NCBI GenBank assembly: GCA_966112355.1
Contig: CBHWCZ010000007.1
Coordinates: 22,752 to 86,751 of the forward strand
Source of the DNA: an uncultured Polaromonas sp.
GTDB lineage: Bacteria > Pseudomonadota > Gammaproteobacteria > Burkholderiales > Burkholderiaceae_C
Direction: 5' to 3'
DNA: 64,000 bases
Positions 7,716 through 27,790 of the stretch are shown here, one piece after another. The position numbers were made by a program, and so were the translations under genes. Numbering within the stretch: the stretch's first letter is position 1; every line of letters begins with the position of its first letter. The notes under the pieces were generated by a model, which did no database searches, was not told the origin of the DNA, and saw nothing but the letters and a program-made list of their open reading frames with translations.

Positions 7716-7734
7716 GACAAAGCGGAAATCCAAG

Positions 7735-7766
7735 TGTCTGAACTGGCCGCCATAAAGCAGACATTC
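7735..7766 (+). repeat. Cargo hairpin motif, diverged copy H1b
   Basis: tgtctg-aactggccgccataaag-cagacattc. Confidence 0.55.
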
Positions 7767-8147
7767 ACCAACGCTTGTCGACAACTCTGATGCCGGGCTC
7801 AGATACAACATATGTGGTCGCTCAAGTTTGACGTTTGAACGACTATGGCGAAAAACAGCTTGGGCGTCGCCGAAGCGCGCGAAAGAACCGGTGCCCAGAT
7901 CAATGACGGTTCTCGGTACGCCATCAAACAATTCAAGGTAGCTGTTGCCATCGCTCCCAGTCGTTCCTGAACCACCCAAGCCGAACGCCACCAGTTCCAG
8001 TGATGCAGCGCTTGAAGTTTGAGCCGGATTCCCGGGAGCTAAAGGTGCTGGCGGCCCCGCAATGGCAAGAGTCGCTATCGCAGCGTGACAGCCAGCTTTA
8101 TCAGCGTCTTGCGGGCGGCCCTGATCTCACGCCGTTCTGGCCAACTC

Positions 8148-8489
8148 TCACTTCGTTTGCTCGTTGCCGTAGGTCTTGGCCAGGTAATCCACGATCAGCG
8201 GAATGTCCGCATCGTCCACCGGCGCCTTGAATACAGTTTTCATGCGTTTGACCATGGCCTCCCAATATGGGCGTGCCGCTGTCGGTGGCTGGTACTGCAT
8301 GTATTCGGCCGAATGACAAGCCGCACAGATGGCCTGTGCCTTGGCGTAACCCGGCAGGCTGCTGGGCTTGAGCTGCACACCATCAGGTGGCAGGTCGATG
8401 GACTTGGACCCGGCATGGGCCAGGGCGGAGCCGGCCAGAAGCGCGGCCGTGATCAGGATTTTGTGTGCCAGTAGGTGGGACATGCGCAT
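8148..8489 (-). CDS. sorB: Sulfite dehydrogenase cytochrome c subunit
   Basis: Signal peptide, CAACH heme motif, YWEAMVKRM...FKAP; directly downstream of sorA with RBS. Confidence 0.85.
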   Translation of the reverse strand: MRMSHLLAHKILITAALLAGSALAHAGSKSIDLPPDGVQLKPSSLPGYAKAQAICAACHSAEYMQYQPPTAARPYWEAMVKRMKTVFKAPVDDADIPLIVDYLAKTYGNEQTK

Positions 8490-8494
8490 GCTCC

Positions 8495-9724: not shown

Positions 9725-9769
9725 GATTGTCTCCTTGTGGTTGGTGAAGTGAAAGTGGTTGGCAAAACG

Positions 9770-10372
9770 CTAACGGGGCGACTGGGCAGTCGCTACTGGT
9801 GAAAACGTGGCTTGAGCGACCGATAGCGCATGCTTTTTTTGCGCCACCAAGACCAGCGGCTTGCCGTCACGTGACGTCACCACCTGCCAGTACACATTGC
9901 CCCACCAGCCGTGGTCTTCGCTGAGCTTCACCGGCTGGTCAAAGGCGAACACGGTCACCATGCCGCCTTTTTCAAAAAAAGTGGTCAGGTGATAGACCAA
10001 ATGGCCTTCAATATCGCAAGGCCGCATCAGTTGCGGAAAGCCGGGAAGAGTCTGGGATTGGCCCAGCCCCAGATGCTCCAGGATTTTCCGGCCCTCCATG
10101 AAGTTGCCGCGCAGGGTTCGCTCGTAGTACTCGTGCTCAATCGCGCCGCGCACCAGCTCCGGAGGCCGCATCGCGAACACGGCACCCACGCCGGTGCCCA
10201 GCAGCAGCAAACCTGCTATCCCGCGCTGCACAGCAGGCCGTAATAGCCATCGGCTTTGGCGGAACAGACTGGCGGGCGGTTGACCCGGCGCGTAGGCCAG
10301 CGCCAATTCGGCGCGGGCGCGGAGATCAAATTCGTTGTCTTCGAAGGGCTTCAACTCGTTTGTTTCTTTCAT
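9770..10372 (-). CDS. Putative anti-sigma factor (single transmembrane helix)
   Basis: Follows an ECF sigma gene by 2 nt; hydrophobic segment IAGLLLLGTGVGAVFA. Confidence 0.55.
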   Translation of the reverse strand: MKETNELKPFEDNEFDLRARAELALAYAPGQPPASLFRQSRWLLRPAVQRGIAGLLLLGTGVGAVFAMRPPELVRGAIEHEYYERTLRGNFMEGRKILEHLGLGQSQTLPGFPQLMRPCDIEGHLVYHLTTFFEKGGMVTVFAFDQPVKLSEDHGWWGNVYWQVVTSRDGKPLVLVAQKKHALSVAQATFSPVATAQSPR

Positions 10373-10374
10373 GG

Positions 10375-10947
10375 TCAGGAGTCCTGGTTTCTGCGCAGCA
10401 CCGTGACCTTGCTGTCCTCGGCATAGTCCCCAGGCGCCTGCAGGTCTGTGGATCTCACCGGTATCATGGCCGCTTTCAGCGCATCGCGCGCCCGCGCCAA
10501 GCGCGACAGAACCGTGCCGGGTGCTACTTCCAGCGCCTCCGCCATCAGGGCGGTGGGCATGTCGTCAAAGTAATAGAGCACCAGCACTTCGCGGTGTATG
10601 GGCGCGATTTTTTGCAAGGCGCGCACCACATCTAGACGGTCGTCAATGCCGGACTCCGGCGCGGCGCGTGAGGCTGTATCCATAGCCAGCGCGTCGTTGT
10701 CATCCAGACAGAGCAGGCCGGGTGCCATGTGGCGCAGCGCGCTGCGGCGCATGATCTGGAACAGCCAGGCGCGGGCGAGTTCAGGTTCCCGTAGCTGGTT
10801 GCGGTATTTCCACGCGCTGGTGAAACAGTCCTGCACCACATCCTCGGCCACGGCGCGTGAGCCACTCATGGCCCAGGCGCTGCGCATCAGGAAGCGGTAG
10901 TGGTCACGCACCCATTGGTTGTAGCGGGACTCGGCAGTTTCGAACAT
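10375..10947 (-). CDS. ECF RNA polymerase sigma factor
   Basis: AEDVVQDCF, RAWLFQI, GTVLSRLARAR. Confidence 0.92.
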   Translation of the reverse strand: MFETAESRYNQWVRDHYRFLMRSAWAMSGSRAVAEDVVQDCFTSAWKYRNQLREPELARAWLFQIMRRSALRHMAPGLLCLDDNDALAMDTASRAAPESGIDDRLDVVRALQKIAPIHREVLVLYYFDDMPTALMAEALEVAPGTVLSRLARARDALKAAMIPVRSTDLQAPGDYAEDSKVTVLRRNQDS

Positions 10948-11032
10948 GCGTATAAGAGCAGTAGTTCAGGGCGCTCATTCCATTCCCCTGATAAATAGTC
11001 ACAGGGGTTTACCCGCAGACCCAGAGGCGTGG

Positions 11033-11407
11033 TCAGCCACCGCCCCGGACCGCCCCCAGTGCCGGATAACCACCTGGCTCTGGGTTGGGCCCGTGTCGTA
11101 AGACCGCCATGCGCCCGCGCATCGCAGCGATTTCCACGGTCTGGCTGGCAATGATGTCCTCGGCAATCTGACGCACCAGCGGGTCGCGTCCGTGTATCAG
11201 CACCAGCCGCGCCATGTCCACCGCCCCCTCGTGGTGGGGAATCATCATCGCCAGAAAGTCTGCATCCGGGTTGCCGGTGTAGCCCGGCCCGTGCATGTCC
11301 TGCATCATGCGGGCCATGCCGGTGTCCATGTCGACTTCAAAGCGACTGGCCGGAGGCGGGTGACCTCCCGCCAACCCTTGTGCGTGGTGGTTACTGTGGT
11401 CGGTCAT
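11033..11407 (-). CDS. DUF305 / CopM-like metal-binding protein
   Basis: DADFLAMMIPHHEGAVDMA ... IIASQTVEI; ATGA overlap with the upstream gene. Confidence 0.85.
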   Translation of the reverse strand: MTDHSNHHAQGLAGGHPPPASRFEVDMDTGMARMMQDMHGPGYTGNPDADFLAMMIPHHEGAVDMARLVLIHGRDPLVRQIAEDIIASQTVEIAAMRGRMAVLRHGPNPEPGGYPALGAVRGGG

Positions 11408-12819
11408 GCAGTCTGCCCATTGCTGCCGGGCCGGACATAGACCAGGTTGATGCTCTTCTTGTTGCGCAATTCGCCTGACGGCAGTTTGAGTGCGCCCAGC
11501 GGAATCTGGGTGATGAGTTTGGGCTCCAGCGGTGATGACACATCGAATGCGGAGCACACCACCTGCCCTGCGTTGGGGGTTCCGGGCAGTTCGTCCTGTT
11601 CATGCGCCACGTAGAGCAGGTTGTTGGCCGGGTTGGTCCAGATTCCATGGGCCTCGCGGCCACCGGTGTAGACCATGCCCACGACCTTTTGCTGAGCCAC
11701 GGGGACCGAGCGGTCGATGATGGCCAGGCGGCTGGAGGCAGCGCCGTTCGGGCCACCGTCGTCGACGCGCGCCAGACTCATGTAGGTCACCTGGCCACGG
11801 GCATTGTCCACAAACTCCAGGTGGTTGGGGCGTGCCAGTTCACCCAGGGCAATCGTGCTCAACACAGCACCCGGGTCTTTGACCGACACGATCGAGACCG
11901 CATCAGCCAGCTTGTGCGACAGCCACATCTGGTTGCCGTCCGGCGAGAGTTTTTGGAACGGCGTGAAGGCAGGTTTGTCCTGACTGCTCAGGTCCACAAG
12001 GCGCAAGCGTTTCGGGCGTGAATGGCCTTTCGCGTCGGCGTTGACCTGCAGGATCTCGAGCTGTGCGGTTTTCTGGCTGATGACAAAGGCCAGCGCGCCG
12101 TCTTTGGAAAACCAGACCTGGGCCGGGCCGTTGAGCGTGGGGATGTACGCGCGAACAGCTAGCGCGGGGATGCCGGTCGGACTGGTCAGCTGCTGGGTGG
12201 CCTGCGCCACGTCGATGATGGCGATGCGGTCCTCACCGCGGAGGGTGACCCATAACTCCTTGCCGTTACGGGTAAAGGTCGGCTCATGCGGCTCACGTCC
12301 CAGCAAGATGCCACTGGACAACCGCTCCGGGTTGGTGGTGGCGCCAGCCTGTGGATTGGCCACATTGCCCACCACGCGCCGGTTCACCGCGTCAATCAGG
12401 TAAATGTTGCTGCTGCCGCGGCCCGAGGTGGCCAGCAGTGTGCCGTCCGGGTTGGGCACTGCGCCGTGGGCGTCAATGCAGCCGTGGTACAGGGGCTTGT
12501 GAATCATGGCGGCATGGGTGGGCATAACGCCGCCGGTGACAAACCGAAACGGCGGCCGTGCTTCTTCGTCAAAGCTGGTGAGGTTGATGGTGGTGTCCAC
12601 CGTATTGCTGGCAGGATTGATCACGCTGATGGTGTTTGAATCCTCGTTGGTGATGAAGACACGGTCCACCGGTGCGATGTCGGGTCCAGCGGATATTCCC
12701 ATCACTGGTGCAGGTTGCGCTGCAGCTGGTGCCACCGCCCAAGGCGCGGCCGCGACGGCGGGTAGCGCCGCAGCGGCTTTCAGGAAGTCGCGACGCGAGT
12801 CATTGAGAAATTCAGTCAT
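11404..12819 (-). CDS. Tat-exported YncE/YVTN-like beta-propeller protein
   Basis: SRRDFLK Tat motif; VFITNEDSNTISVI; repeated xHE/xHG blades. Confidence 0.8.
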   Translation of the reverse strand: MTEFLNDSRRDFLKAAAALPAVAAAPWAVAPAAAQPAPVMGISAGPDIAPVDRVFITNEDSNTISVINPASNTVDTTINLTSFDEEARPPFRFVTGGVMPTHAAMIHKPLYHGCIDAHGAVPNPDGTLLATSGRGSSNIYLIDAVNRRVVGNVANPQAGATTNPERLSSGILLGREPHEPTFTRNGKELWVTLRGEDRIAIIDVAQATQQLTSPTGIPALAVRAYIPTLNGPAQVWFSKDGALAFVISQKTAQLEILQVNADAKGHSRPKRLRLVDLSSQDKPAFTPFQKLSPDGNQMWLSHKLADAVSIVSVKDPGAVLSTIALGELARPNHLEFVDNARGQVTYMSLARVDDGGPNGAASSRLAIIDRSVPVAQQKVVGMVYTGGREAHGIWTNPANNLLYVAHEQDELPGTPNAGQVVCSAFDVSSPLEPKLITQIPLGALKLPSGELRNKKSINLVYVRPGSNGQTA

Positions 12820-12963
12820 GAGTTCTTTCGAAAGTTGAAAAATGGAGTTGCAAAAGTGCTGGCAAAGTACGCTCTGGCGTAAACCGGCTGCAAGGTCAGC
12901 CGCCCTCGTGATTCGCGCCAATGATGGTCTGATTAATTCGATGAATTGGGCGCGGTCACGCAG

Positions 12964-13815
12964 TCAGCGCGGCGTGTCGAGCTGTCGGTAGACCTCGCCG
13001 GACACCCGCGCCAGTTCGGCCTTGTCGGCGTCGGCCGAAATCGCATAGCCGAAGGGACCATTGACCCAGTAGAAAACATTGACGCCGCCTTCCCGGGCAA
13101 AGCGGAAGGCTGTTTCCTGATTCTTCTGGCCTGGCGCTGTAGCGCTCACACCACTGACCTCATTTGAGACATACAGCGTCAGCTTGGCGCCGGCGTTGTC
13201 GTGGTACATGAACTGCGCGACCGGCCCGTTGTCGCCCGGCAACAACCGGCCACCGTCGAGGGCGTAGCCCAGCGTCTGCAGATGGGGCGGTTTCATGGTC
13301 GCACCCATGCGCTTGGACAGCCAGGCCACCAGTTGGTCTTCATGGTCGGCGCTGACTTCAACGGGCCGCCGTACGTCAGGGCTGTAGACCGCATGGGCAA
13401 TCGCCGCGCGCTGCGCAAACCCTGTGGCCGACGCGACGGCGATGGCGCTGGGCGTGCGCTGGGCCACCATGCCAGCACCTGGCTCGGAGCCCAGACCGCC
13501 GCGCAGGCCCCAGCCTGCGGCGCCACTGACCACGGCAATCGCGATGCCAGCGGCCATGCGCTGCAGATACCAGGGCGTGCGTGGCCTGGCAGCCTGCCGG
13601 ATCCGCAGCGGCAGCGATTCTTCGAGCACTGGATTGAAGAGTGCGCGCAGTTCGCGCTTTTGGGTCAGATAGCTTTCGACGCGTTGCGCCTCTTCGGGGC
13701 GACGGGCCAGATACGCTTCGATCTCGCGCTGACGCTCCGGCGTGAGTTGACGATCCACGTAAGCGTGCAATTCAGCTTCGGTGACGGGTGTTGGGGGAGG
13801 TGTGACTGGGTTCAT
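12964..13815 (-). CDS. Transmembrane anti-sigma factor (RsiW-like)
   Basis: ELHAYVDRQL, AHAVYSPDVRRPVEV, LVAWLSKR, GGRLLP. Confidence 0.88.
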   Translation of the reverse strand: MNPVTPPPTPVTEAELHAYVDRQLTPERQREIEAYLARRPEEAQRVESYLTQKRELRALFNPVLEESLPLRIRQAARPRTPWYLQRMAAGIAIAVVSGAAGWGLRGGLGSEPGAGMVAQRTPSAIAVASATGFAQRAAIAHAVYSPDVRRPVEVSADHEDQLVAWLSKRMGATMKPPHLQTLGYALDGGRLLPGDNGPVAQFMYHDNAGAKLTLYVSNEVSGVSATAPGQKNQETAFRFAREGGVNVFYWVNGPFGYAISADADKAELARVSGEVYRQLDTPR

Positions 13816-13825
13816 GACGGTCTGT

Positions 13826-14350
13826 TCATTTAACGACTTTGAGTCGAACGGGATCATGTTGGCCTTCCATGAGAGAACGCAAGCGCTCACGACCACGCGA
13901 GAGGCGCGACATGACCGAGCCGATGGGGATACCCAGGGCAGCGGCCACTTCGGCGTAACTCATGTCTTCCAGCGCGATCAGCAAAATGATCTCCCTTTGC
14001 TCTACCGGCAGCTTCTCCAGAGCGGCCTGCAAATCCATGACGGCAAGGCTCTCACCCTGGGTCGCTGCGACCGGCAATTCGGGGGTGTCGTCATCGAGGA
14101 CCACGGTGTGCAGCTTGGGCCTGCGGACACCGTCCACGTGCAGGTTATGCATCATGCCGAACAACCACGCCCGCATATCCGAGACACCTCGCCACAGCGC
14201 CGATTTGGCCAGTGCCCGCTCCAGCGTGTCTTGCACCAGGTCATCGGCGTCCTCGCGGTTGCCCACCAGCGCCCGCGCGTAACGGCGCAGGCGCGGCACC
14301 CAGGTCAGCAGGTGGTCGTCACCGTTCTCGTCGTAGAGGTCGTTTTGCAA
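13826..14350 (-). CDS. ECF RNA polymerase sigma factor
   Basis: LRRYARAL, ADDLVQDTLERA, GSVMSRLSRGR. Confidence 0.92.
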   Translation of the reverse strand: MQNDLYDENGDDHLLTWVPRLRRYARALVGNREDADDLVQDTLERALAKSALWRGVSDMRAWLFGMMHNLHVDGVRRPKLHTVVLDDDTPELPVAATQGESLAVMDLQAALEKLPVEQREIILLIALEDMSYAEVAAALGIPIGSVMSRLSRGRERLRSLMEGQHDPVRLKVVK

Positions 14351-14390
14351 ACTGCCGCCTGGTTATTTTGCCGGTCTGAACGTCAACCCA

Positions 14391-14786
14391 TCATTCCTTG
14401 ATGATGTGCCAGACGTCCTTGAAGTTGTCGCCGGTGCGGTCACCCGCTTTCTGGTCAGCTTTGTAGAAGTACAGTGGCTTACCTTTGTAGGCGAGCTGGC
14501 GCGCGCCATCGTCGCGCGTCACGACACTGTAATCGCCAAAGGGCTGATCGGTGGTTGCCATCAGGGGCGGCCACAGGCCGGCGCAGGGACCATTGCAAAC
14601 GCTTTTGCCGCTGCCGGCCTTGTCGTTGTCAAAGGTGTAGAGCGTCATGCCATTGGATGCCACCAGCGCACCGCCAGACATTTTGGCGGGTGCATCGGCC
14701 GCAACGGCAGATATGCTGACAACCATGGAGGCCGCGCTGATGGCAAGGGTTGCCAGAAAAAGCGGGATTTTCATACTGTTCTCCAA
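14391..14786 (-). CDS. Secreted repeat protein (COG4315/Lipoprotein_15-like)
   Basis: GMTLYTFDND, CNGPCAGLWPP, KPLYFY..D. Confidence 0.85.
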   Translation of the reverse strand: MENSMKIPLFLATLAISAASMVVSISAVAADAPAKMSGGALVASNGMTLYTFDNDKAGSGKSVCNGPCAGLWPPLMATTDQPFGDYSVVTRDDGARQLAYKGKPLYFYKADQKAGDRTGDNFKDVWHIIKE

Positions 14787-14810
14787 TGAGTGTGTGTGGC
14801 GGGTTGGCGA

Positions 14811-15245
14811 TCAGTACGCGGCAACTGACAGCTTGGGATCAATCTGCCAGGTTTCGCTGACGATCTTGCCCAGTCGGAAGGTCAGCACGTAGCGAACCTT
14901 GATGGGGGCCTTGCCTTCGAACTGTACGTTGGCAGACACTGTCGAGCCGCTGGTGTTGGCAGACTCTTCCAGCTTGTCGACGCTGACTTTCAGCGGACCC
15001 TGCGACTTGGTGAACTTTTCCCACACGCCGCGAATCGCGTCCGGACTGGCGTAAGTGCCGTCCAGCGGACCACCCACCCAGTTGAACTGGGCCTGGTCCG
15101 CGTAGCCGCGCATGACGATGGACAAATCGCCCGAGCCGATGGCCTGGAAGTGGGTCTTGGCGTCATCGGCCGGGGCAGCCATGGCACCGGTGGCGGTAAA
15201 CAGCACAGCGGCGGCGCAAGCGGTAAGGGAAAGGGTTTTGAACAT
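14811..15245 (-). CDS. Secreted SnoaL/NTF2-like protein
   Basis: Signal peptide; HFQAIGSGDL...WVGGPLDGTY...ETWQI. Confidence 0.7.
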   Translation of the reverse strand: MFKTLSLTACAAAVLFTATGAMAAPADDAKTHFQAIGSGDLSIVMRGYADQAQFNWVGGPLDGTYASPDAIRGVWEKFTKSQGPLKVSVDKLEESANTSGSTVSANVQFEGKAPIKVRYVLTFRLGKIVSETWQIDPKLSVAAY

Positions 15246-15374
15246 GAAAAGCTCCTGGTAAGGTAAGACGAGTGAAGTTGCGGTGAGGCTTGAACTTGGT
15301 CGCAGCAGCCAATTGCTGCTGTCATGGAGGTAGACGGTTCGCAATGCCGGTTTATTCCAGAAGCCTGAAAATAA

Positions 15375-16532
15375 TTAACCAATCAGAGCAAACACCCACC
15401 GGTTGATCAGCGCACCGCCCACCACCAGCCAAGTGAAGAGGGTCAGCGCCAGCAAGAGAGGCTTGACGCCGGCTTTGCGTATGGAGGATATGTGGGTGGC
15501 AAGACCCAGCGCTGCCATCGCCATGGCCAGCAAACCGGTGTCGACCTCGGTCGTTACAGCCACGACACTTGGCGGCAGCAGGTTCAACGAGTTGAACAGC
15601 ACCACACCGACAAAGGCAAAGGCGAACCAGGGCACAGCCAGCTTGGGCTGGATGAGCGCCCCAAGACGTACAGTGTGCTCATGGGCAGCTGGTGCCGGGG
15701 CCATTCGCACGGTGCGCCTGGCGTCGTCCCGCGCCAGCCAGGCCGATAGCATGATGAGAAAGGGCGCCAGCATCATCACGCGCACCATCTTGGCGATGAC
15801 AGCCGTGTCGGCCGCGTGGGGGCCTACCGAGCGCGCTGCAGCCACCACCTGGGCCACCTCGTGAATGGTGGAGCCGACATAGATGCCGAAGCCGTCAGCG
15901 CCGCCCGGAACCAGCTGCCACTGGCGATTGAGCTCAAACAGCAGCGGGTACAAGAAGATGGCGATGGTGCCGAACACCACCACGGTGGCCACGGCGACCG
16001 TGACCTGTTCGGCGCGCGCTTTCACCACCGGCTCAGCGGCCATCACGGCAGCAGCGCCGCAAATCGAGCTGCCGGCACCAATCAACATCACCGTCTTGCG
16101 ATCCATGCCGAGGCAGCGGATGCCAATGACGCATGCCAGCGCAAACGTCGAACCCAGGACCAACGCATCGGTGGCCACGCCCGCCAGGCCGACGTGGCCA
16201 ATATCCTGCACCGTAAGCCGCAAGCCGTACAGCACCACACCCAGGCGCAGCAGGTTTTGTTTGGAAAAGTTGACCCCGGCGCCGCTCACTCTGGCCACAC
16301 GCGGATAAGCCGTGTTGCCGACCAGCATGCCCAGCACGATGGCGAGTGTCAGGGCGCTGAACCCGTGGTCCTGCAGCCAGCCGATGCGGCTCAGCGCGAT
16401 CGCGGCCGCAGCCAGAGCACCGCTAATTACCAGGCCAGGCAGCAGGCGCAGCAATGGGTCCATCGCATTCCTGACGGCCCGGCCAGACGCAGGGGCTTCG
16501 AAGGAAGGTCGGGAGGGTGCGGCGGTGGTCAT
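15375..16532 (-). CDS. yeiH: YeiH-family membrane exporter
   Basis: LLRLGVVLYG, GSSICGAAAV, GSTIHEVAQV, KMVRVMML; divergent LysR partner. Confidence 0.9.
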   Translation of the reverse strand: MTTAAPSRPSFEAPASGRAVRNAMDPLLRLLPGLVISGALAAAAIALSRIGWLQDHGFSALTLAIVLGMLVGNTAYPRVARVSGAGVNFSKQNLLRLGVVLYGLRLTVQDIGHVGLAGVATDALVLGSTFALACVIGIRCLGMDRKTVMLIGAGSSICGAAAVMAAEPVVKARAEQVTVAVATVVVFGTIAIFLYPLLFELNRQWQLVPGGADGFGIYVGSTIHEVAQVVAAARSVGPHAADTAVIAKMVRVMMLAPFLIMLSAWLARDDARRTVRMAPAPAAHEHTVRLGALIQPKLAVPWFAFAFVGVVLFNSLNLLPPSVVAVTTEVDTGLLAMAMAALGLATHISSIRKAGVKPLLLALTLFTWLVVGGALINRWVFALIG

Positions 16533-16659
16533 GGTGTTCTCCATCAGGTTCGGTTCGTCAGGGTCGAATGTAGAGTTCTGTAATCTATCCGTCCAACAGC
16601 TTGTTTGAGTAACATATAGCTGTTTAATCAATATACAAAGCACGCAGGGGAACTCGACC

Positions 16660-17586
16660 ATGGATGTACTGCGCCTGACATTGCGTCAACTGCAAATTTT
16701 TGTGGCGGTGGCCCAAACCGGCAGCACGACGGCAGCCAGCACGCAAATTGCCCTGTCGCAGTCGGCGACCAGCGCGGCCGTCAAGGAGCTGGAGCGTCTG
16801 CTGTCGCTCCACCTGTTCGACAGGGCAGGTAAACGCCTGCTGCTCAACGACAACGGACGAGCTCTGCTGCCGCGGGCGCAGGCCCTGCTGGACGGCGCGG
16901 CCGGGATCGAGCAGATGTCCCGTGATGGCATGGCGCAGTCCCAGTCGCTGCGGATTGGCGCTAGCACCACGATTGGTAACTACGTGTTGCCCCGGCTTCT
17001 CAGGCAGTTTCTGCGTGGACGGCACCAAGACATCGCCACCAGTTGGCATTCAAGGATTGCCATAAACAACACTGAAGCGATATGCGACGCAGTGGACCGG
17101 TTCGAACTCGATGTGGGGCTGATAGAAGGCCCCTGCCACCATACGTCACTCATAGTCACCCCATGGATGCAGGACGAGCTGGTGGTGGTGGGGCACCCGA
17201 CTCTTGCGAATAAATCGAAGCAAGGGCGGGTGTCACTGAAAACATTACGCGATTGGGTATGGCTGCTGCGCGAGGCGGGCTCGGGTACCCGAGAGGCGAC
17301 AGACCAATTGCTACTGCCTCATCTCACTTCCTACCGCCACAGCATCGAACTAGGAAGCTCAGAGGCGATTAAGCACTCGGCTGCAGCAGGACTTGGAGCG
17401 GCATGCCTTTCGCGATGGGTCGTAAGCGACATGCTAGAGGCAAAACTCTTGAAGCGTGTCAATACCACGCTGCCGAAAATGACCCGCCAGTGTTATACGG
17501 TGATTCATCGAGGCAAACAACATACGCCAGCGTTACTGGACTTTATCGATCAAGCAACATCGCTTACAAAATCTAGAGGGAAATAG
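16660..17586 (+). CDS. yeiE: LysR regulator, YeiE-like
   Basis: LTLRQLQIF HTH; GASTTIGNY, LREAGSGTR; divergent from yeiH. Confidence 0.8.
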   Translation: MDVLRLTLRQLQIFVAVAQTGSTTAASTQIALSQSATSAAVKELERLLSLHLFDRAGKRLLLNDNGRALLPRAQALLDGAAGIEQMSRDGMAQSQSLRIGASTTIGNYVLPRLLRQFLRGRHQDIATSWHSRIAINNTEAICDAVDRFELDVGLIEGPCHHTSLIVTPWMQDELVVVGHPTLANKSKQGRVSLKTLRDWVWLLREAGSGTREATDQLLLPHLTSYRHSIELGSSEAIKHSAAAGLGAACLSRWVVSDMLEAKLLKRVNTTLPKMTRQCYTVIHRGKQHTPALLDFIDQATSLTKSRGK

Positions 17587-17614
17587 AAATGTTCTGCGAA
17601 AAGTGAAGCGGGGG

Positions 17615-17840
17615 ATGCTTCGTATCCTTGATTCGTGGATCGAGGGACTTCGACTCGGTCCAGTCGCCTATAGAACTCACACCATTCGCAAAACTAAAGC
17701 ATCCTTGATTTACTGTCGAACGAAGAATATTCGACTTGTCCAATCGCTTCTGGGTCATACCAAACTCTAAAACACCGGGCGGTGCCTCGGCATTGAGGTA
17801 GCAGAAGCCTTGTAGCTTTCATAGTAGACAGAGATTTGCC
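17615..17840 (+). pseudogene. Small tyrosine recombinase, C-terminal remnant
   Basis: YRTHTIRKTKASLIYCRTKNIRLVQSLLGHTKL*NTGRCLGIEVAEAL* (HxxR and LGH boxes); stops at 17768 and 17813; catalytic Tyr position reads Cys. Confidence 0.85.
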
Positions 17841-17901
17841 AGATTGAACTTGGCTGCTGGTTGAATGATTTTTGACTTCCAGTTACAGGTCGTTCCGGTG
17901 C

Positions 17902-17928
17902 GTCCGCTTCTGGCCCGGATGCGGAAAC
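17902..17928 (+). repeat. Cargo hairpin motif copy H2
   Basis: gtccgcttctggcccggatgcggaaac, preceded by ggtcgttc. Confidence 0.8.
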
Positions 17929-18069
17929 TTTGTGCTCCGTCACCAGCATGGTGAAGAAGCCCTTCACCCCGGGCGCGCCGATTTTGGGAGGGTGCTGCAT
18001 TTGCCACCAGGTCGATAAAGCCTGTAGAGTCCAAATGCGCAAAGACGCGCCAACATTCAGGAGACTGCC

Positions 18070-18444
18070 ATGTTCAAAAGCGATACCTGCTGCACCTTGG
18101 TGCCCTACTTCGAAGTCGAGGAATCACAACTCGCCGCCTTCAAAGCACTCGGGCCTAAATTTGTCGAGAAGACACGCACGGAAGCGGGATGCGTGCACTA
18201 CGCGTTCTCTTACAGCGGCCACACAGCCCATTGCCGAGAAGGTTATGTCAACGCGGAAGCAGTTCTCGCACATCTCCAAAATGTCGGCGAGCTGCTTGGT
18301 GAGGCGCTCAAGATAGCCAAGATCACTCGACTCGAGGTCCATGCACCAGCAGCAGAGATCGAGAAACTCAAGGGTCCTATGGAGTCATTGAATCCGCAGT
18401 TCTTTGCCCTCGATCCAGGCATCCGACGCAGCAGCGAAGACTAA
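18070..18444 (+). CDS. ABM-domain putative monooxygenase
   Basis: GGAG RBS; TRTEAGCVHYAF ... REGY..AEAVLAH. Confidence 0.8.
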   Translation: MFKSDTCCTLVPYFEVEESQLAAFKALGPKFVEKTRTEAGCVHYAFSYSGHTAHCREGYVNAEAVLAHLQNVGELLGEALKIAKITRLEVHAPAAEIEKLKGPMESLNPQFFALDPGIRRSSED

Positions 18445-18470: not shown

Positions 18471-18506
18471 CCAAATCGAAAGGCTCACAAGCGGTCATTT
18501 AACTGC

Positions 18507-18540
18507 GGCCGCTTCTGGCCCGATTACGGCTGCCGAGACA
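18507..18540 (+). repeat. Cargo hairpin motif copy H3
   Basis: ggccgcttctggcccgattacggctgccgagaca; preceded by aagcggtcatt. Confidence 0.8.
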
Positions 18541-18708
18541 TTGCGGACGTTATCCGCTTCAGTAATTTCACATTTTCATCGTCGGTTCCCTTGATTTGGG
18601 CGATGAGGCGGTCCCTCCCGACGGCGATTTCAGCGGCTACAAGCGCACAGTAAACTGAGACGGCCGAATTGCGGCTAATTACAAAAGACAATGAGAAGGA
18701 GACAAGCC

Positions 18709-20094
18709 ATGAAGCGACGATGTTTTGTTGCAGCTGCCGCGCTGCTGCTGGGCGCATGTTCAACCCCGTCGGGGCCGCCCGCAACTCAGTCGGGCCTAGC
18801 CTCGGCCTCGGAGCGGTGGATCGCGACTTGGGCGGCCCCTGCGGTCGCCCGACTCGACCAACCAACGCAGACTCTTTCAGCGGCGGCGCTCGCCTATCCA
18901 TGGGCGCGTGATGTGCCGGCCGCCGTCGATGCGGCGGGAATTGGCTCGCAGCCGCTGCCGGTGGGGGGTATGTCTCCACTCCACTTCAAAGACCAGACCC
19001 TGCGACAAATCGCTCGCGTTTCGGTGGGGGGTACACGCGTGCGTGTCGTGTTATCCAACAGCCTCGGTACCTCGCCACTGCGCATCGGGGCTGCGCAAGT
19101 GGCGCTTAGGGATACAGGGGCCAGCATCGTCGCGGGCTCCAACCGAGTATTAACCTTCGGCGGTATTTCCCAGCCAGTGGTGCCGGCTGGCGCTTTGATG
19201 GTCAGCGATCCGGTGGATCTCGCAGTGAAGGACTTTGGCGACCTGGCGATTGATCTGCACCTGCCAGACGACACGTCCACATGGAAATCTCCGGTAACGG
19301 TTCACCCTGCCTCCTGGCAAGTTAACTATGTATCGTCACAGGGAAACTACATTGGCGCGACGCGCTTCCCAGTGATGGCCACGACGGCCTATCGCCGCAG
19401 CGACGGCCTTGCCTCAGCTTCATCGTTCTTCCTTGCCCGCGTCGAGGTTGTCGCAGCGCCGCCAACAGGCGTGCTGGTAGCGTTTGGCGACTCCATTACC
19501 GATGGCACGCAGTCCGGAATCGATGCGAATCGCCGTTGGCCAGATCTGCTAAATACTCGTCTTCATACAGCTGGCACGAGGCTAAGCGTGGTGAACGGTG
19601 GGATCGGAGGCGGCCGCGTGCTGGAGGATGGCGTCGGACCGAATGCGCTGGCCCGCTTCGACCGGGACGTTCTCGCCCAGCCGGGTGTCACTCATGTCAC
19701 GGTGCTCGAAGGGGTCAACGATATTCGGGCAGGTGGCACCAAACCATCACCGACCGTTGCCGACCTTATTGCCGGGCATCGACAACTGATTGACCGCGCA
19801 CACGCCCGCGGCTTGCGCGTTTTCGGTGGAACGGTACTTCCCTTTGAAGGTGACTCAAACTGGACCCCTGAGGGTGAGGCTAAACGCCAAGCGCTGAACG
19901 ACTGGATTCGTAAGAGTGGCGCCTACGACGCCGTGCTGGACTTCGATCGCGTGGTGCTCGACCCCGCGCGGCCGACTCGTATGCAAGCCGAGTTTGACTC
20001 TGGTGACCACCTGCATCCCGCGCCGGCTGGCTACCGGGCTATGGCCGACAGCATTGATCTGAACCTGTTCCGTCCGGGAGTGCTGGCAAAGTAG
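18709..20094 (+). CDS. SGNH/GDSL hydrolase lipoprotein
   Basis: Lipobox LLGAC; FGDSITDG, NGGIGG, LEGVND, DHLHP. Confidence 0.9.
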   Translation: MKRRCFVAAAALLLGACSTPSGPPATQSGLASASERWIATWAAPAVARLDQPTQTLSAAALAYPWARDVPAAVDAAGIGSQPLPVGGMSPLHFKDQTLRQIARVSVGGTRVRVVLSNSLGTSPLRIGAAQVALRDTGASIVAGSNRVLTFGGISQPVVPAGALMVSDPVDLAVKDFGDLAIDLHLPDDTSTWKSPVTVHPASWQVNYVSSQGNYIGATRFPVMATTAYRRSDGLASASSFFLARVEVVAAPPTGVLVAFGDSITDGTQSGIDANRRWPDLLNTRLHTAGTRLSVVNGGIGGGRVLEDGVGPNALARFDRDVLAQPGVTHVTVLEGVNDIRAGGTKPSPTVADLIAGHRQLIDRAHARGLRVFGGTVLPFEGDSNWTPEGEAKRQALNDWIRKSGAYDAVLDFDRVVLDPARPTRMQAEFDSGDHLHPAPAGYRAMADSIDLNLFRPGVLAK

Positions 20095-20158
20095 TCCAAT
20101 TAATGGGCACGTAGACTTTCGCGAGTCTCGTGCCCAACCCGTTACCGGTCATTCGCGT

Positions 20159-20188
20159 ATGTCGGCTTCTGGCTACGAAAGCGGACAC
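20159..20188 (+). repeat. Cargo hairpin motif copy H4
   Basis: atgtcggcttctggctacgaaagcggacac, preceded by ggtcattcg. Confidence 0.8.
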
Positions 20189-23025: not shown

Positions 23026-23079
23026 ACAAAAGGCAGAGGAGTCCAGCTCAGATTTTCCTCAGAGTATCTCGAAGAGGTG

Positions 23080-23106
23080 GTCTGCTTTTGGCCCGATAGC
23101 GGACAC
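23080..23106 (+). repeat. Cargo hairpin motif copy H5
   Basis: gtctgcttttggcccgatagcggacac. Confidence 0.8.
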
Positions 23107-23180: not shown

Positions 23181-23438
23181 TCAGCGCCGTTTTATCTGCC
23201 GGTTTAATTGATCCAAACTACCAAGTCCCAGCTTCTCCATCGCATCGTCACCGCTTATCTCACCTGCCTCATACAAATCCAGTATCTCCAGGCGTTCATA
23301 GTCCGGGCTGCCAAATTCTCTTCCTACAGGTGCTACGTCGAGCCATGCTTGCTCTTCAGCGGACCACGGCCAGACTTTTCGGTTGAACTGGCCATGACGC
23401 AGCTGGCTAATCCGACGCTTATTCTTTCGGATGCTCAT
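23181..23438 (-). CDS. Small hypothetical protein
   Basis: 85-aa ORF with upstream gagagagcc; plausible composition (WLDVAPVGREFGSPDY). Confidence 0.55.
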   Translation of the reverse strand: MSIRKNKRRISQLRHGQFNRKVWPWSAEEQAWLDVAPVGREFGSPDYERLEILDLYEAGEISGDDAMEKLGLGSLDQLNRQIKRR

Positions 23439-23638
23439 CAGGCTCTCTCTCTTTGCTAGGGGACATATTCGCAGTCAGCTGAGATTTTTACTGACATCCC
23501 TTGGTCCTTGACCAGTTCGACCGCTCAGCGTTGAAGTCAAGACTGAGTTTCCTTCTTGTAACCATACACCGCCTCCAGTTTCATCGACCACCTCAACAAA
23601 GTGTCTATGAAACCGGCATCAACGGAATTTAATCCAAG

Positions 23639-23929
23639 TCAGAGCATCCTCACTCTATCGGCGACCGTAGGAATACTTTCGTATGGCAAGGTGTTGTCTT
23701 CCAGCAGTGCGCGCGCAGCTTCGCGCGGGACCAGCATCACCACCTGCTCGTTTGCGTGAGCGAGGGCCAGTAACGTAACGACAGTGAAATTTTGGTGCCC
23801 ACTGAGCGCTCTGCTTACACTTTGACGAGTCAGACCTGTTCGCGCAGCAAGATCCACATCGCTAGCGATCTTTCGACCGCGGCGAAGACTCTCGGCCAAG
23901 CTTTTTAGGGTATTCATTTGTGAATGCAA
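23639..23929 (-). CDS. XRE-like HTH protein
   Basis: DLAARTGLTRQSVSRALSG...TVVTLLALA. Confidence 0.7.
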   Translation of the reverse strand: MHSQMNTLKSLAESLRRGRKIASDVDLAARTGLTRQSVSRALSGHQNFTVVTLLALAHANEQVVMLVPREAARALLEDNTLPYESIPTVADRVRML

Positions 23930-24077
23930 GTAATGACTCTACTTCGGTGAAAAATAATGTTAATTATATTTAACATTTCTGCGATTTGTTAAATATATTT
24001 GACAAACCAAATGGGCGAGAAAACGTGCTGACCAGCACAGAGATCGCTGCCGAGGAGCCGACACCAGTCACTTACCA

Positions 24078-24110
24078 ATGTCCAGTTCTGGCCCGAAGGC
24101 CGTCGACACA
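24078..24110 (+). repeat. Cargo hairpin motif copy H6
   Basis: atgtccagttctggcccgaaggccgtcgacaca. Confidence 0.7.
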
Positions 24111-24528
24111 AAGACCACCTCCAGGACATTGATCCGACCGGCTGAATGCTGGCTTCGAAGATTACTAATCGACAGGGTCGCAGGCTAACTGAAATGCGGG
24201 GGGAGCCGGAATAGTTTCACTTACCTATGAAACGGTAGGGCACGACGAACTGGGGTGTGATCTTGTGCACGTGCTGCCGTGAGCATCAATTTTTCCTCTG
24301 TTGGTGCTGCCTGTCCTAGGCTACAGGCCAAGAATACTAGGCATCTATGAGCACAGCACCGCCTACCCCCAATTGGTTAGCGATGCTTGCGGGGGAGGTG
24401 CCGCCTCCCGAGCGTCGAGAGCGTATCCATGGCGCGGGAGAGTTGCTCGTCGGGCGCATGGTTCAAACCGATGTGCAGGCGAGTGACACCCTGATCGGAA
24501 GGGCTACGCTTTCAAAACGAACCCTATT

Positions 24529-24811: not shown

Positions 24812-27790
24812 TCAGAACGTGACTCGCAGCCGCTTGGCGCGCTCTTGGAAGGCCCGCTTACCACCTTCCAGAATCGCGCATACCGTTTCGCGTATCGCCG
24901 ACTCTTCAAGGCCTCCAGACTGGTAATTCATACGCGGCAAGCGCCCGGGTTCATGACTACCGCAACTAGCGACGATTACCTGGTCAGCATCCGTGTTGAC
25001 GACAAGATTGGCGTTGTGCGTGACGATGATGACCTGGCGTCGAAGCTTTGCGCGCTGGAACTCCACAACAAGTTCGTCGTAGATCGACTGGGGATCGAGG
25101 TTTTCTTCGGGCTGGTCCACAATCAGTGGCCGGTCGTCCTGGGCGTCTACCGCCAAATACAAGAGCAACAGCACAATCCCTCGCGTGCCTGGGGACAGAC
25201 GCTCAATCGGGACACCGTCAAACTCCAAACCGTAACCGACAGAGATGTGCTCGGTGCCGAACAACCATGCCGAGACGGAGCGGGCCCACTCTTTGGGCTC
25301 GGCGTGATCTGGACGATGGACGCGAAGGTCCTTGCCGTAGGCAGCTACGAACTGCAGCAATGCTTCGCACGCGGCTGCGGCGTCGCCGGACTGCCAAGCT
25401 TCTAGCAGCGAAACTCCGGCGACCGCCCGAAGGCTACCCTTGCCTTTGAAGGGGCCTGCCGCACGCAGGTCTAGCAGGGCTTCGCCGGCTTCGCACCAAA
25501 CGTTTAGGTCGACATGCCGCCGAACGGTGAATGCCAACTTTGACAGTGAACCTTGCGCCTGCGAAATCTGGGCCTTCAGCGGCTGGTACAGCGCCTCCAG
25601 CGCGGCCTCTTCGTCCACCACGGCCTGGAACACACCGACATATGCTTCACGGCGCTGCTGCCGCAGGGAAGTGATCCTGTCGTCCGCCCCATTTGCCCGG
25701 CCGATCTCGGCGTCCATCTTGGCAAGTCCGATTTTTGCCGTGGACACCCGATCACTGATTAGCTTGAATCGCCGTGCGTTCTGTGCATCCAAGCCTATCA
25801 ATTGGCGTAGGCGGCCTAGTTCTCGCTCCAGCAGAGTCAAGGGATGTTTGGATAGGTCATCGGCTTCAGCAATCAGTGGCACGTTCGGGTCGGCCTGGGC
25901 ATCGTGCGCGGTCGTCGAGGCGTCACCTTCTAGGGTGCGCAGAGTCCGACGGATTTCTTGTTCAAGCTGGGTAAGGATCACGTCCACATCGCCAGCGAAT
26001 ACCAAGCGGAACCTCGCCCATTCGCCGACTGGCAACTCGGCTTCCTCGCGCTCCGTCTGCATTCTTTCAAGCATATCCGGCAGTACCCGCTCCCGCAAAT
26101 TTTTGACGTCGGCTGTCAGATGACGTAGAGCCTCCAGCCGGACCTTTGCCTTAAGTACTTGTGAGCGTTTAGTGTCGACTGCTTGCGATACAGCATCATG
26201 GCGCATGGCGCGGTCTGTATCCCCCTTAGGCATAAGCGCCTTCATGTCAGCCTCATCGTTCTGGAGGGCCTTCAACTTTTCGGTGCGGTCCTTTATCAGT
26301 GAGGCCAGCCCATCTTTCCTCGCTTGCTCGGCGGCCATGGCCTGTGACGCCCGCGAGATGGCATCGACCTGACGGACGCGGCTGGTCCTTGCGCCTTCCA
26401 GCCGGATTGCCAGCAACTCTTCGAACGAAGTGGCGTCCAGCCGATCTGCTTCCGAGTGCGCGTCGAAAACGACGCGCTCGATTTCCCGGAGCAACGGATC
26501 TTCCAAGCCCTCAGCTGAGCACAGTTGGTCCACGAATTGCTGGGACAGATATTGCACCTGTGGCGCGTCGACAAGATCCTCCATTTCCAAGCCCGAGAAG
26601 GAGTTTGAGGTCGTGTCCCCCGACTCCCAAAGCAGCTTAGCTTCGGACCCATTCAAATGGTCCGCGGCACGACGCAGAAAGGACTTATCGCTGAGGTGGG
26701 CGTAGACCGCGCAGCCACCCATTGCGATGAAATCAGCGAGAGCCGTCTTGCCCGATCCACGCGCGCCGATAATGGCGATGAGGCCAGGGTTCAACTCAAT
26801 GGACGAGGGCGACATCCATGGCGCTTGGCTCACGGTGACCGAGCGGATGACATTGCTAGGCAGAGCGCCTCTCGGTGGCTCAGCACCGATGAAGACGCGG
26901 CCTTCCGGGTTCATGCAGGCCTGGCGTAGGGTTTCGAAGCTCGAAGCGCCTTTGAGCCAGCAGTACCTATTCAGCGCAGGCTTGCCGACCTTCTCGTATC
27001 CATGTGCATCAGAGCCGTGCAAGCAAGGCTTAGGCCCACCCCATTTTGCATTCAGCTCTGCCAGTGAAACAGCGCCTTTGCCTTGGTAGAAGGCCGCTTG
27101 CTTGGGGTTACCACTGAAGATTATGTGGGCGAAGCCTTCGATGTTAGTGCGCGTTGCAGAAAATGACGACGACTCGTCGCGCAGCCCCGATGTGCCGTCG
27201 CGTTCACCAGCAGCGACCGCAATCAGACAATTGCTGCGGAGCCAGTCGCTCCCCTCCCAAGTCTGACGCAGATCCTCGAAGTCGATCTTGAACTGGTTAA
27301 CCCCTGCCGTAAGCGCTGCGCCGTTGTCGACAATGGACGGATCATGCGCGCGTCCGAGCCGGATTAGTTCCGACCGCTCACAACGGAACTCATCGCGCAG
27401 GTAACGAAATTTGAATCCGGCCATTAAGCGCCGGATGCGCTCCATATGGTCGTCTGCCTCAGGCGAGAACAGGAGATGGGCATTGATGGCCGCGTTGCTG
27501 GAGGTGCCGATCGATAGCCGGATCTCAACGTTGGGCAACAGCAGTTCAACGCCAGGCAGGCGGCCCCCTGCCTGCACAGCCAGGGCCGTTTCGTAAGTGT
27601 CGATAAGGAAGTAATCAGTGATGCCCAATACCTTGATCGCCGGTTCATGCTGGTTGACTCGATTACAAAAATCTGCCCATGGATCGTCTCCCGAAAATTG
27701 ATCGTTCATCGCGGTACCGGGAGCATGGATATGGGGATCCCAGCGCTGCCACAACGAGCCGCGGGTCTTGTCCGATGCGACGTCTTTCAT
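24812..27790 (-). CDS. PHP-domain + ABC/SMC-type ATPase (TrlF/Ppl-like)
   Basis: WDPHIHAPG, GITDYF, GSDAH; Walker A GARGSGKT; coiled coil; LSPG signature, VDQPEENLD, VTHNAN. Confidence 0.85.
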   Translation of the reverse strand: MKDVASDKTRGSLWQRWDPHIHAPGTAMNDQFSGDDPWADFCNRVNQHEPAIKVLGITDYFLIDTYETALAVQAGGRLPGVELLLPNVEIRLSIGTSSNAAINAHLLFSPEADDHMERIRRLMAGFKFRYLRDEFRCERSELIRLGRAHDPSIVDNGAALTAGVNQFKIDFEDLRQTWEGSDWLRSNCLIAVAAGERDGTSGLRDESSSFSATRTNIEGFAHIIFSGNPKQAAFYQGKGAVSLAELNAKWGGPKPCLHGSDAHGYEKVGKPALNRYCWLKGASSFETLRQACMNPEGRVFIGAEPPRGALPSNVIRSVTVSQAPWMSPSSIELNPGLIAIIGARGSGKTALADFIAMGGCAVYAHLSDKSFLRRAADHLNGSEAKLLWESGDTTSNSFSGLEMEDLVDAPQVQYLSQQFVDQLCSAEGLEDPLLREIERVVFDAHSEADRLDATSFEELLAIRLEGARTSRVRQVDAISRASQAMAAEQARKDGLASLIKDRTEKLKALQNDEADMKALMPKGDTDRAMRHDAVSQAVDTKRSQVLKAKVRLEALRHLTADVKNLRERVLPDMLERMQTEREEAELPVGEWARFRLVFAGDVDVILTQLEQEIRRTLRTLEGDASTTAHDAQADPNVPLIAEADDLSKHPLTLLERELGRLRQLIGLDAQNARRFKLISDRVSTAKIGLAKMDAEIGRANGADDRITSLRQQRREAYVGVFQAVVDEEAALEALYQPLKAQISQAQGSLSKLAFTVRRHVDLNVWCEAGEALLDLRAAGPFKGKGSLRAVAGVSLLEAWQSGDAAAACEALLQFVAAYGKDLRVHRPDHAEPKEWARSVSAWLFGTEHISVGYGLEFDGVPIERLSPGTRGIVLLLLYLAVDAQDDRPLIVDQPEENLDPQSIYDELVVEFQRAKLRRQVIIVTHNANLVVNTDADQVIVASCGSHEPGRLPRMNYQSGGLEESAIRETVCAILEGGKRAFQERAKRLRVTF

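Follow-up and report, generated by a model that had tools for sequence, protein, structure and literature searches.

The stretch of DNA described here (64,000 nucleotides (nt) of a contig from an uncultured Polaromonas sp., referred to below as the window) contains a run of short, hairpin-forming repeats that bound a series of gene modules, and immediately upstream of one of these repeats lies the tail of a broken gene for a small tyrosine recombinase. The question raised by this locus is which enzyme acts, or once acted, on the repeats, and how the broken gene is related to it. The answer to which the analysis points, and which we regard as probable, is that the remnant is the dead tail of a small Xer-like recombinase, that the hairpins are the recombination sites of this recombinase's own family, and that the modules have been shuffled at the cores of these sites.

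A dead recombinase gene beside a repeat site

The remnant aligns, in a tblastn comparison, with residues 131-206 of an intact homologue of 206 amino acids (aa) over positions 17609-17836, with 55% identity, and this is the only match to that protein in the window. Translated in frame, positions 17603-17932 read VKRGMLRILDSWIEGLRLGPVAYRTHTIRKTKASLIYCRTKNIRLVQSLLGHTKL, a stop, NTGRCLGIEVAEAL, a stop, LS, two further stops and TEIC, the inner part of the remnant preceding the first of these stops being ...THTIRKTKASLIYCRTKNIRLVQSLLGHTKL. The in-frame stops number four (TAA at 17768, TAG at 17813 and TAG TAG at 17822-17827, i.e., at 17822 and 17825), rather than the two counted in the initial annotation, and the natural stop has itself mutated from TGA to TGC (17837-17839). 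That annotation had correctly described a small tyrosine recombinase with an LLGH motif and a lost catalytic Tyr: the codon concerned is TGC (17783-17785), which turns RY into RC (Tyr to Cys), and the H-x-x-R motif (THTIRK) and the LLGH histidine are retained. The N-terminal two thirds, i.e., all sequence ahead of residue ~131 including Arg-I and Lys, are missing because a LysR/YeiE-like gene (16660-17586), which abuts the 5' side of the remnant, ends at 17586. Profile matches are confined to the C-terminal part of the catalytic domain (PF00589, E 0.0019; XerA/XerC models, E 5e-6 to 2e-5). Having lost the Tyr and its whole N-terminal part, the remnant belongs to the tyrosine recombinase superfamily through descent alone and is not functional. 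Together with its junction with the LysR gene, it recurs almost unchanged in other metagenome runs, which indicates that the inactivation is old.

The repeat closest to the remnant (site E2 in Table 1, designated H2 in the initial annotation) was said to begin ~60 bp further on, and the measured distance agrees with this: a small hairpin, GTCCGC..GCGGA, starts at 17903, which is 64 bp past the last homologous codon, the sequence at that distance being GTCCGCTTCTGGCCCGGATGCGGA, and the site is preceded by the box AGGTCGTTC. The remnant and site E2 are colinear with the intact gene of a Rhodoferax locus (L068) and the site downstream of that gene.

RC in place of RY at the catalytic tyrosine was also seen in family fragments from the database (P0001, P0005, P0007 and P0008), which may simply mean that the word-based search favoured fragments sharing RCLGIE with the query, or that A-to-G decay is recurrent. 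Three remnants had pointed to a hotspot of truncation near residue 130, an idea that was dropped: L012 proved to be a full-length gene with a frameshift, and the L059 breakpoint shows no evident site. A weak site-like sequence, AATGTTCTGCGAAAAGTGAAGCGGGG, lies in 17589-17615, exactly at the 5' break of the remnant, and another, GTCACCAGCATGGTGAAGAAGCCC, in 17944-17968, where runs X4 and X5 read GTCAGCTTGGTGAGAAAGCAC; both are unscored by the motif model described below.

Anatomy of the site

Six copies of the repeat, all on the plus strand, are present in the window (at 7686, 17902, 18507, 20161, 23080 and 24080), together with a half copy at ~5554. In its window form the site measures ~27 nt and is composed of an outer arm (GnCnGCTTC), a 7-bp core (TGGCCCG) and an inverted inner arm. 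The core reads TGGCCCG in five of the six sites and is identical in the Rhodoferax locus, and five of the six score at least 9.8 bits with a motif model built from other taxa. Folded as single strands, the window hairpins reach z values of -0.8 to -2.1 against shuffled sequences, which is marginal; what is conserved in these sites is the sequence and not the fold.

A logo of 112 sites from across the family shows a near-invariant A..G.C.GCTTyTGGCCG followed by a weaker rTwrsCG.C. Written out, the family-wide site has an outer arm A..GnCnGCTTY, a core TGGCCGG (TGGCCCG in this Comamonadaceae lineage) and an imperfectly inverted inner arm, TTAGCGAC or ATAGCGGAC. The two arms are imperfect inverted repeats that share CGCT, and it is this that gives rise to the small hairpin noticed at the outset. 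When the recombinase-bearing units of the Pseudomonas type are aligned by their ends, the outer arm GnCnGCTTY varies with the context, whereas the TGGCCGG core is followed by a constant inner arm, TTAGCGAC..., which is carried by the unit.

An inverted box, (C/G)CGGTC(R)TT, was also observed at a fixed 8-nt spacing before the sites of this lineage (7667-7702, 17882-17918, 18487-18523, 20141-20177 and 24060-24096 in the window, as well as in L068 and L159). It yields a second palindrome of the form 7-8-7, e.g., GCGGTCA-TTTAACTG-CGGCCGC.

A widespread family of small recombinases

The family to which the remnant belongs comprises more than 8000 database proteins (E <= 1e-10), mostly of 206 aa, and at least 599 loci in a scan of the genome collection. 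Its range covers Gamma- and Betaproteobacteria; E. coli, Pseudomonas, Halomonas, Methylococcales, Xanthomonadales and many Burkholderiales are among its carriers. The proteins, of ~200-206 aa, consist of the catalytic domain only, and intact homologues carry PF00589 and are in this sense members of the tyrosine recombinase superfamily, which is characterised by a catalytic-domain fold with R-K-H-R-H/W and a nucleophilic Tyr. Apart from this membership and the array layout considered below, every test of family membership failed. The XerA, XerC and XerD equivalog models gave 60-71 bits against cut-offs of 220-335, their alignment covering just the catalytic half and the family protein beginning ~35 residues ahead of the aligned part, while the invertase model NF007371 (FimB/FimE) gave 23-26 bits against a cut-off of 222. 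The IntI model TIGR02249 returned 22-25 bits for intact members and 15 for the remnant (cut-off 265), and a further IntI model, NF011946, 18.8 bits (cut-off 435); the family protein is ~120 aa shorter than IntI and lacks a counterpart of IntI's extra domain. The best matches by sequence in the PDB are the XerA-like 4a8e and XerD 1a0p (E 5e-5 to 3e-4), and an AlphaFold2 model of the intact protein had a mean pLDDT of 54, too poor for a fold search.

Several further observations concern the gene itself. In loci L014-L093 and L214 a conserved hairpin is located ~10-45 nt before the recombinase start codon and pairs the Shine-Dalgarno sequence with an upstream complement (e.g., CCTTGTCCTCC...GGAGGACAAG); it changes in sequence between lineages and keeps its pairing, which suggests translational control of the recombinase. 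Two recombinase copies, in direct or inverted orientation, lie 2-6 kb apart in L015, L042, L074 and L087. A link of the family with IS91-family elements that have an upstream integrase ORF was rejected, no HUH/Y2 rolling-circle transposase being a neighbour in the inspected P. aeruginosa, E. coli and plasmid contexts or in the window.

Reciprocal association of gene and site

The initial annotation had stated that this ~200-aa family often neighbours such repeats, and this was confirmed. A motif model was built from 80 recombinase loci of different species (out of the at least 599), with the consensus TTTGAACGTCCGCTTCTGGCCGGTTAGCGACCGT, and it produced 112 hits of at least 12 bits in 1.3 Mb of recombinase loci and none in the reversed sequences. 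In 35-42 of 76 loci a minus-strand site follows the recombinase stop codon at ~45 bp; on the upstream side, 11-18 of 79 loci have a plus-strand site ~64 bp ahead of the start codon, and none of the loci scanned has one in the wrong (minus-strand) orientation there. Between 150 bp and 10 kb from the gene the density is 0.067 sites per kb, compared to 0.0008 per kb in control loci (80 hemE loci of Comamonadaceae, 1.21 Mb in all), where a single motif hit of at least 10 bits was obtained. Eight P. aeruginosa loci have the motif on both sides of the intact gene, on the plus strand upstream and on the minus strand 36 bp downstream. An E. coli homologue with 60% identity keeps the 3' hairpin, which is followed by GCCAGATGCGGACGTT, and has a 5' hairpin that sequesters the ribosome-binding site.

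The association also holds when the site is taken as the starting point. Among 46 metagenome loci chosen solely by an exact 19-base version of the motif, 24 (52%) have the gene, whole or in part, immediately next to the site; about ten of these genes are intact, and the remainder are mostly gene ends beside the site, as in the window. C-terminal stubs of the family in E. coli adjoin a TrlF-type ATPase. A scan of the genome collection with the exact pattern CCGGCCARAAGCGGNC was unspecific, returning mostly chance matches in unrelated phyla; it left ~16 plausible loci, with the gene within 8 kb in four of the 16. A 30-mer of the window type gave no hits in metagenomes.

A permuted form of the remnant recurs in four samples (L327, L333, L336 and L342), in the order residues 106-206 with a minus-strand site, ~1.7 kb, and a plus-strand site with residues 1-35. 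It looks as if an insert were flanked by two truncated units.

Natural rearrangements at the cores

In its commonest arrangement the gene forms, with two inner arms, a unit of ~0.74 kb bracketed by inverted sites, and the small recombinase is the only gene that this unit contains. The units of L014, L365 and L326, ~741-747 bp long, share 99.5-99.9% identity; it extends no further than the core, outer arms and flanks being unrelated. Between L326 and L014 a right flank of 1350 bp is shared (99.85%) and the unit is inverted, the switch in orientation falling inside GTCGCTAACCGGCCA, i.e., within the core. The inverted unit joined to the common right flank was also found in contigs of public runs X19 and X24 and the forward unit in runs X10, X14, X16 and X18, while both junction forms are present in run X17. 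The joint between opposite strands carries 22 ambiguous letters, which are the site itself. The locus is absent from the raw Nanopore run X33.

The array of the window has likewise been rearranged. Runs X3-X6 hold parts of it, with 95-99% identity, in other combinations, and homology ends in or just after TGGCC(C)G at 7702 (E1), 17916/17917 (E2), 18524 (E3) and 20173 (E4). Site E2 is followed by three alternative right-hand continuations in other runs. The GDSL module (18546-20164) recurs at ~99% in X3, X4 and X6 with a different left neighbour and without the ABM-like and PDC-S53 modules. The 124-aa open reading frame (ORF) module is found in runs X4 and X5 and is largely missing from X3, and the PDC-S53 helicase module is present in runs X1 and X2 only. 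The 10-kb block at 7768-17602 is found at ~90-95% identity in several soil metagenomes without its neighbouring modules, and it thus behaves as one very large module.

A more regular array was found in Massilia sp. (L073), where four plus-strand sites precede the gene and seven minus-strand sites follow it. Intervals of 420-630 bp separate the downstream sites, each unit holding a single small ORF; these ORFs are mostly ORFans, one being DMP19-like and one LprI-like, and no recombinase fragments occur between the sites of this array. Further sites, for the most part co-oriented, separate accessory genes from one another; taking all loci together, 72 pairs of adjacent sites point the same way and 39 in opposite directions, 12-15 of the latter bracketing the gene, with a median spacing of 1.55 kb. 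The gene context in P. aeruginosa includes a reverse transcriptase (RT)-containing system, a HATPase/GmrSD pair and a PIN gene.

As a family, the small recombinases are the best candidates for the enzyme acting on these sites, as had been proposed initially: theirs is the only gene in a unit that inverts and inserts with junctions at the core, and the modules of the window recombine at cores. The variants, being sequence data, locate the rearrangements but do not name the catalyst. In the proposed mechanism, catalysis would be due to the small recombinase, which would bind the two arms, probably of duplex rather than single-stranded sites, and would cleave and exchange strands within the 7-bp core. 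Co-oriented sites would lead to excision, insertion and exchange of gene modules, as the mosaics and arrays suggest, and inverted sites to inversion, as seen for the 0.74-kb unit; this unit is able to invert and occurs at different pre-existing sites. In the window, the six co-oriented sites delimit the AbiTii, (weakly) ABM-like, GDSL, PDC-S53 and other modules, and related populations contain these modules in combinations that were reshuffled at the cores. The local recombinase being destroyed, the array is now frozen as a fossil; any present activity would depend on an enzyme provided in trans by a paralogue elsewhere in the genome.

A number of points weigh against this interpretation. There is no intact copy of the family within the window. 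The window sites are found on the 3' side of plus-strand genes, and their orientation there is the reverse of that in the commonest arrangement, a layout of gene and site that Rhodoferax L068 and Leclercia L049 share. About half of the intact genes lack a site that the model can detect, and about half of the motif loci lack the gene within a few kb. The junction evidence is drawn from a comparison of different samples and from de Bruijn contigs, which are prone to break at repeats, and homologous recombination across the ~25-nt motif could be the source of some junctions. TGGCCG is the most conserved part of the motif, which is unusual for a mere spacer; it may be a recognition element rather than, or besides, an overlap region, and a need for identical overlap regions would alternatively explain its conservation. 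Finally, none of 24 loci with homologues of PDC-S53 (mostly from Actinobacteria and Campylobacter) has a site, and the flanks of a 71%-identical copy from Steroidobacteraceae are not homologous to those in the window; given the siteless homologues in other phyla, modules do not always travel with sites.

Comparison with known systems

The layout was initially likened to intI-attI-attC, and the parallel stands as to its logic. As in integrons, a tyrosine recombinase adjoins co-oriented, mostly single-gene modules, each bounded by a short imperfect palindrome, an arrangement seen both in the window, where each of the six sites follows a module, and in L073. The cargo is similarly rich in ORFans and in immunity-like and phage-defence genes, and both dead recombinases and arrays with no recombinase in the vicinity are frequent, comparable to CALINs (clusters of attC sites lacking integron integrases). 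In its components the parallel did not hold. The protein is not IntI: at ~200 aa it has neither a core-binding domain nor the IntI-specific insertion. The sites are conserved in sequence (GCTTYTGGCCG), whereas attC is conserved in structure only; they lack the R boxes of attC, and no RYYYAAC/GTTRRRY pair was found on reading the sequences at the site boundaries. Neither an attI-like site nor a Pc is evident at the array, and inverted sites usually enclose the small-recombinase gene, which can itself move and invert. The system follows the logic of integrons without being one, and no integron integrase is present. An IntI-sized ORF of 342 aa left of the array (3401-4429) was considered as an integron integrase and rejected, being a fragment of the radical-SAM/DUF4080 gene described below.

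Another architectural counterpart is provided by the rAID-1 clusters of Bacteroidales, in which a XerD-like recombinase is associated with arrays of orphan immunity genes and repetitive intergenic sequences (Ross et al., 10.1101/471110). These clusters were defined by a XerD-like recombinase that shares at least 44% identity with BF9343_RS08045 and has co-oriented low-GC genes behind it, and their arrangement was described as reminiscent of integrons (10.1101/471110). In both cases small accessory or immunity genes stand co-oriented behind a tyrosine recombinase other than IntI, with a conserved repeat between them and a skewed G+C content. However, rAID-1 belongs to another phylum, its recombinase is a full-length XerD-like protein and no invertible recombinase unit has been reported for it; the likeness is one of architecture only.

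FimB and FimE are likewise tyrosine recombinases of ~200 aa that act on short inverted repeats, and Hin is encoded inside the segment that it inverts, just as the small-recombinase gene is enclosed by its own pair of inverted sites and occurs either way round. Hin, however, is a serine recombinase, and the sites of the small family, unlike those of both invertase systems, also occur as direct repeats in arrays, with no promoter or phase-variable target identified. With Xer/dif and the pdif modules of Acinetobacter plasmids the family shares an Xer-like catalytic domain, a ~27-bp site of the arm-spacer-arm type and site-bounded modules in varied contexts; those systems differ in depending on the housekeeping XerC/XerD pair, in contrast to a single small, dedicated enzyme encoded by the element, and in their site sequence.

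Alternative explanations

If the sites worked as those of integrons do, they would be recombined as folded single-stranded hairpins like attC, with one strand exchanged and the product resolved by replication. The long forms are indeed strong hairpins (z -4.0 in P. aeruginosa and -4.6 in Massilia), the inner stems adjoining the gene vary in sequence yet stay paired (among 35 loci, 31 different arms were counted, and perfect stems averaged 7.6 bp, compared with 4.7 bp for shuffled sequences), and arrays of single small ORFs resemble integron cassettes. The long hairpins, however, are two sites facing each other, the short forms of the window fold marginally, and conservation resides in the sequence rather than the structure; the arm-7 bp-arm layout is that of ordinary duplex core sites, and IntI's extra domain and the R''/R' boxes are both missing. 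We therefore consider a single-strand mechanism quite unlikely. It is also unlikely, if somewhat easier to entertain, that only a selfish mini-element is at work, i.e., that the 0.74-kb unit inserts site-specifically, that solo sites are its targets, its scars or relics resembling miniature inverted-repeat transposable elements, and that the neighbouring genes are not mobilised, their mosaicism stemming from homologous recombination between repeats or from repeated gain and loss of the unit. This would suit the fact that the clearest evidence of mobility concerns the unit itself, and it would accommodate the gene-end fragments that are common beside sites and the siteless PDC-S53 copies elsewhere. 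It fits less well with L073, where each small ORF on either side of the gene is followed by a site and no recombinase fragments lie in between, with the three different window modules that break at cores and the three continuations of E2, and with the predominant co-orientation of array sites.

The repeats might instead be regulatory or structural elements, such as intrinsic terminators or mRNA stabilisers of the repetitive extragenic palindromic (REP) type, beside which the remnant would be an unrelated passenger. Their dyad symmetry and their position 55-120 bp after plus-strand genes in the window are what one would expect of such elements. Yet they have no T-run, and Rfam at gathering thresholds gave no match in the whole window; moreover, the distance and orientation to the recombinase are fixed across bacterial orders, the reciprocal association reaches 52% with the motif nearly missing from 1.2 Mb of related genomes, and natural rearrangement junctions fall inside the sites, so that this explanation is largely refuted and retains very little probability. 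No more credible would be that the large integrase of the surrounding island (419 aa, 35537-36796) acts on the hairpin sites: although it is the sole apparently intact tyrosine recombinase in the island, it sits at the island end, as expected of an integration module, it has no site near it, and the sites accompany the small family in loci without a large integrase.

With these alternatives weighed, family-specific recombination at the cores remains our preferred interpretation, and a broader proposal can be made, although only tentatively, as we would not yet put it on a level with the interpretation of the window itself. The small recombinases and their sites may constitute an undescribed and widespread proteobacterial system, in which a catalytic-domain-only recombinase, carried on an invertible and site-specifically inserting 0.74-kb unit, would act through a 27-nt site (GnCnGCTTY-TGGCCSG-inverted arm) on single-gene modules within islands, inserting, excising, exchanging and inverting them; many of these modules serve phage defence or immunity. 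No published description of the family or the site was found when searching by concept or by site sequence, although the coverage of subscription journals was thin and a prior description is possible. The gain and loss of single genes in defence islands and other accessory regions are mostly unexplained outside integrons, and for the defence hotspots of Pseudomonas no single mobilising mechanism was reported (PMC10250203); the modules in the present arrays include AbiTii, PDC-S53, an RT-containing system and GmrSD-type genes. If the proposal is true, the system would be a second, independent solution to cassette capture and a counterpart of integrons and rAID arrays that could explain the diversification of some defence islands. 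The 27-nt site would then be a practical marker for mobile defence and immunity genes, and a 200-aa recombinase with a short, defined site might be a useful genetic tool. For the window alone the implication is more modest, namely a fossil array whose local enzyme is dead.

The genomic island and its modules

All sites and the remnant are contained in a genomic island, the limits of which are given in Table 1 with the coordinates of the other features. Its empty insertion site is preserved in a related Comamonadaceae genome (L217, hemE 96% identical), in which the gene is uninterrupted: positions 1-3494 of L217 correspond to 976-4491 of the window and positions 3495-4079 to 36980-37552. The two halves of the interrupted radical-SAM gene lie at 3401-4491 and 36980-37520. 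The insertion explains the lower G+C content of this stretch.

Table 1. Positions of the island, its sites, modules and recombinase remnant in the window (1-based)
Feature	Positions	Strand	Remarks
Genomic island, 32.5 kb	4492-36979		Inserted in B12-binding radical-SAM/DUF4080 gene; contains all sites and the remnant
Half site E0	5540-5615	+	Right-hand part recognisable only; 80% identical to 7705-7763
Module: AbiTii-domain gene and 145-aa ORF	6123-7563	+	AbiTii gene at 6123-7043
Site E1, long form	7666-7767	+	Core 7695-7701, then degenerate inverted site GGCCGCCATAAAGCAGAC; 20.5 bits; breakpoints 7667 and 7702 (run X5) and 7755 (X3)
10-kb block of higher G+C (0.62)	7768-17602		From E1 to the remnant; metabolic, transport and regulatory genes on both strands; ends with LysR/YeiE-like gene 16660-17586
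Recombinase pseudogene remnant	17609-17839	+	Residues ~131-206 (last ~76 codons) of a ~200-aa catalytic-domain-only tyrosine recombinase
Probable decayed site GCCAGATTGAAC	17838-17849	-	Canonical post-stop consensus GGCCAGAAGCGGAC; weak assignment, read against downstream flanks of intact genes and unscored by the model
Site E2	17880-17928	+	Outer arm GCGTCCGCTTC, core TGGCCCG 17911-17917, inner arm GATGCGGAAA; breakpoints after 17916/17917 (runs X3, X5, X6)
Module: 124-aa ORF	18070-18444	+	Weak ABM-domain likeness (Pfam E 0.0033, 18 bits, under the curated cut-off of 23.1)
Site E3	18487-18556	+	Core 18516-18522; inverted box TTGCGGACGTT; breakpoints 18511, 18524 and 18546
Module: GDSL/SGNH hydrolase	18691-20094	+	
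Site E4, short form	20141-20188	+	GTCGGCTTC TGGCTAC GAAAGCGGAC; variant core; breakpoints 20164 and 20173
Module: SF1 helicase, 896 aa	20335-23025	+	Full-length match to candidate defence family PDC-S53 (PADLOC E = 0, 1327 bits)
Site E5, short form	23076-23106	+	GGTCTGCTTT TGGCCCG ATAGCGGACA; clearest 10-7-10 core site
Module: two small ORFs, 85 aa and 96 aa (HTH_3 domain)	23181-23929	-	
Site E6, long form	24060-24150	+	Core 24089-24095; last site of the run

Beyond the last site, positions 24812-28452 add to the defence-type cargo represented by the AbiTii-domain protein and the PDC-S53 helicase, with a 1004-aa Ppl/AriA-like ATPase adjoining a DUF2026 protein, and the island has its own copy of the radical-SAM gene (72% identical) at 28680-30317. 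At the right end of the island, three consecutive large ORFs occupy 31274-36796 on the minus strand. They comprise the 419-aa tyrosine integrase mentioned above, which has a SAM-like N domain and a catalytic domain, and two ORFs of 682 aa and 733 aa without a Pfam match, and the set is possibly a trio-type integration module. Kinship of these three ORFs with the three-integrase module of plasmid pPUV-7 was rejected, no similarity being found beyond the catalytic motif.

Two minor features lie outside the island. ARAGORN calls a tRNA-Gln(ttg) at 61737-61829, inside a region of long ORFs on both strands; this call is doubtful because its length, 93 nt, is unusual. The first ~50 residues of the ORF at 57362-58726 match just the C-terminal end of a transposase of the IS481 family, and this ORF is probably an insertion sequence fragment.

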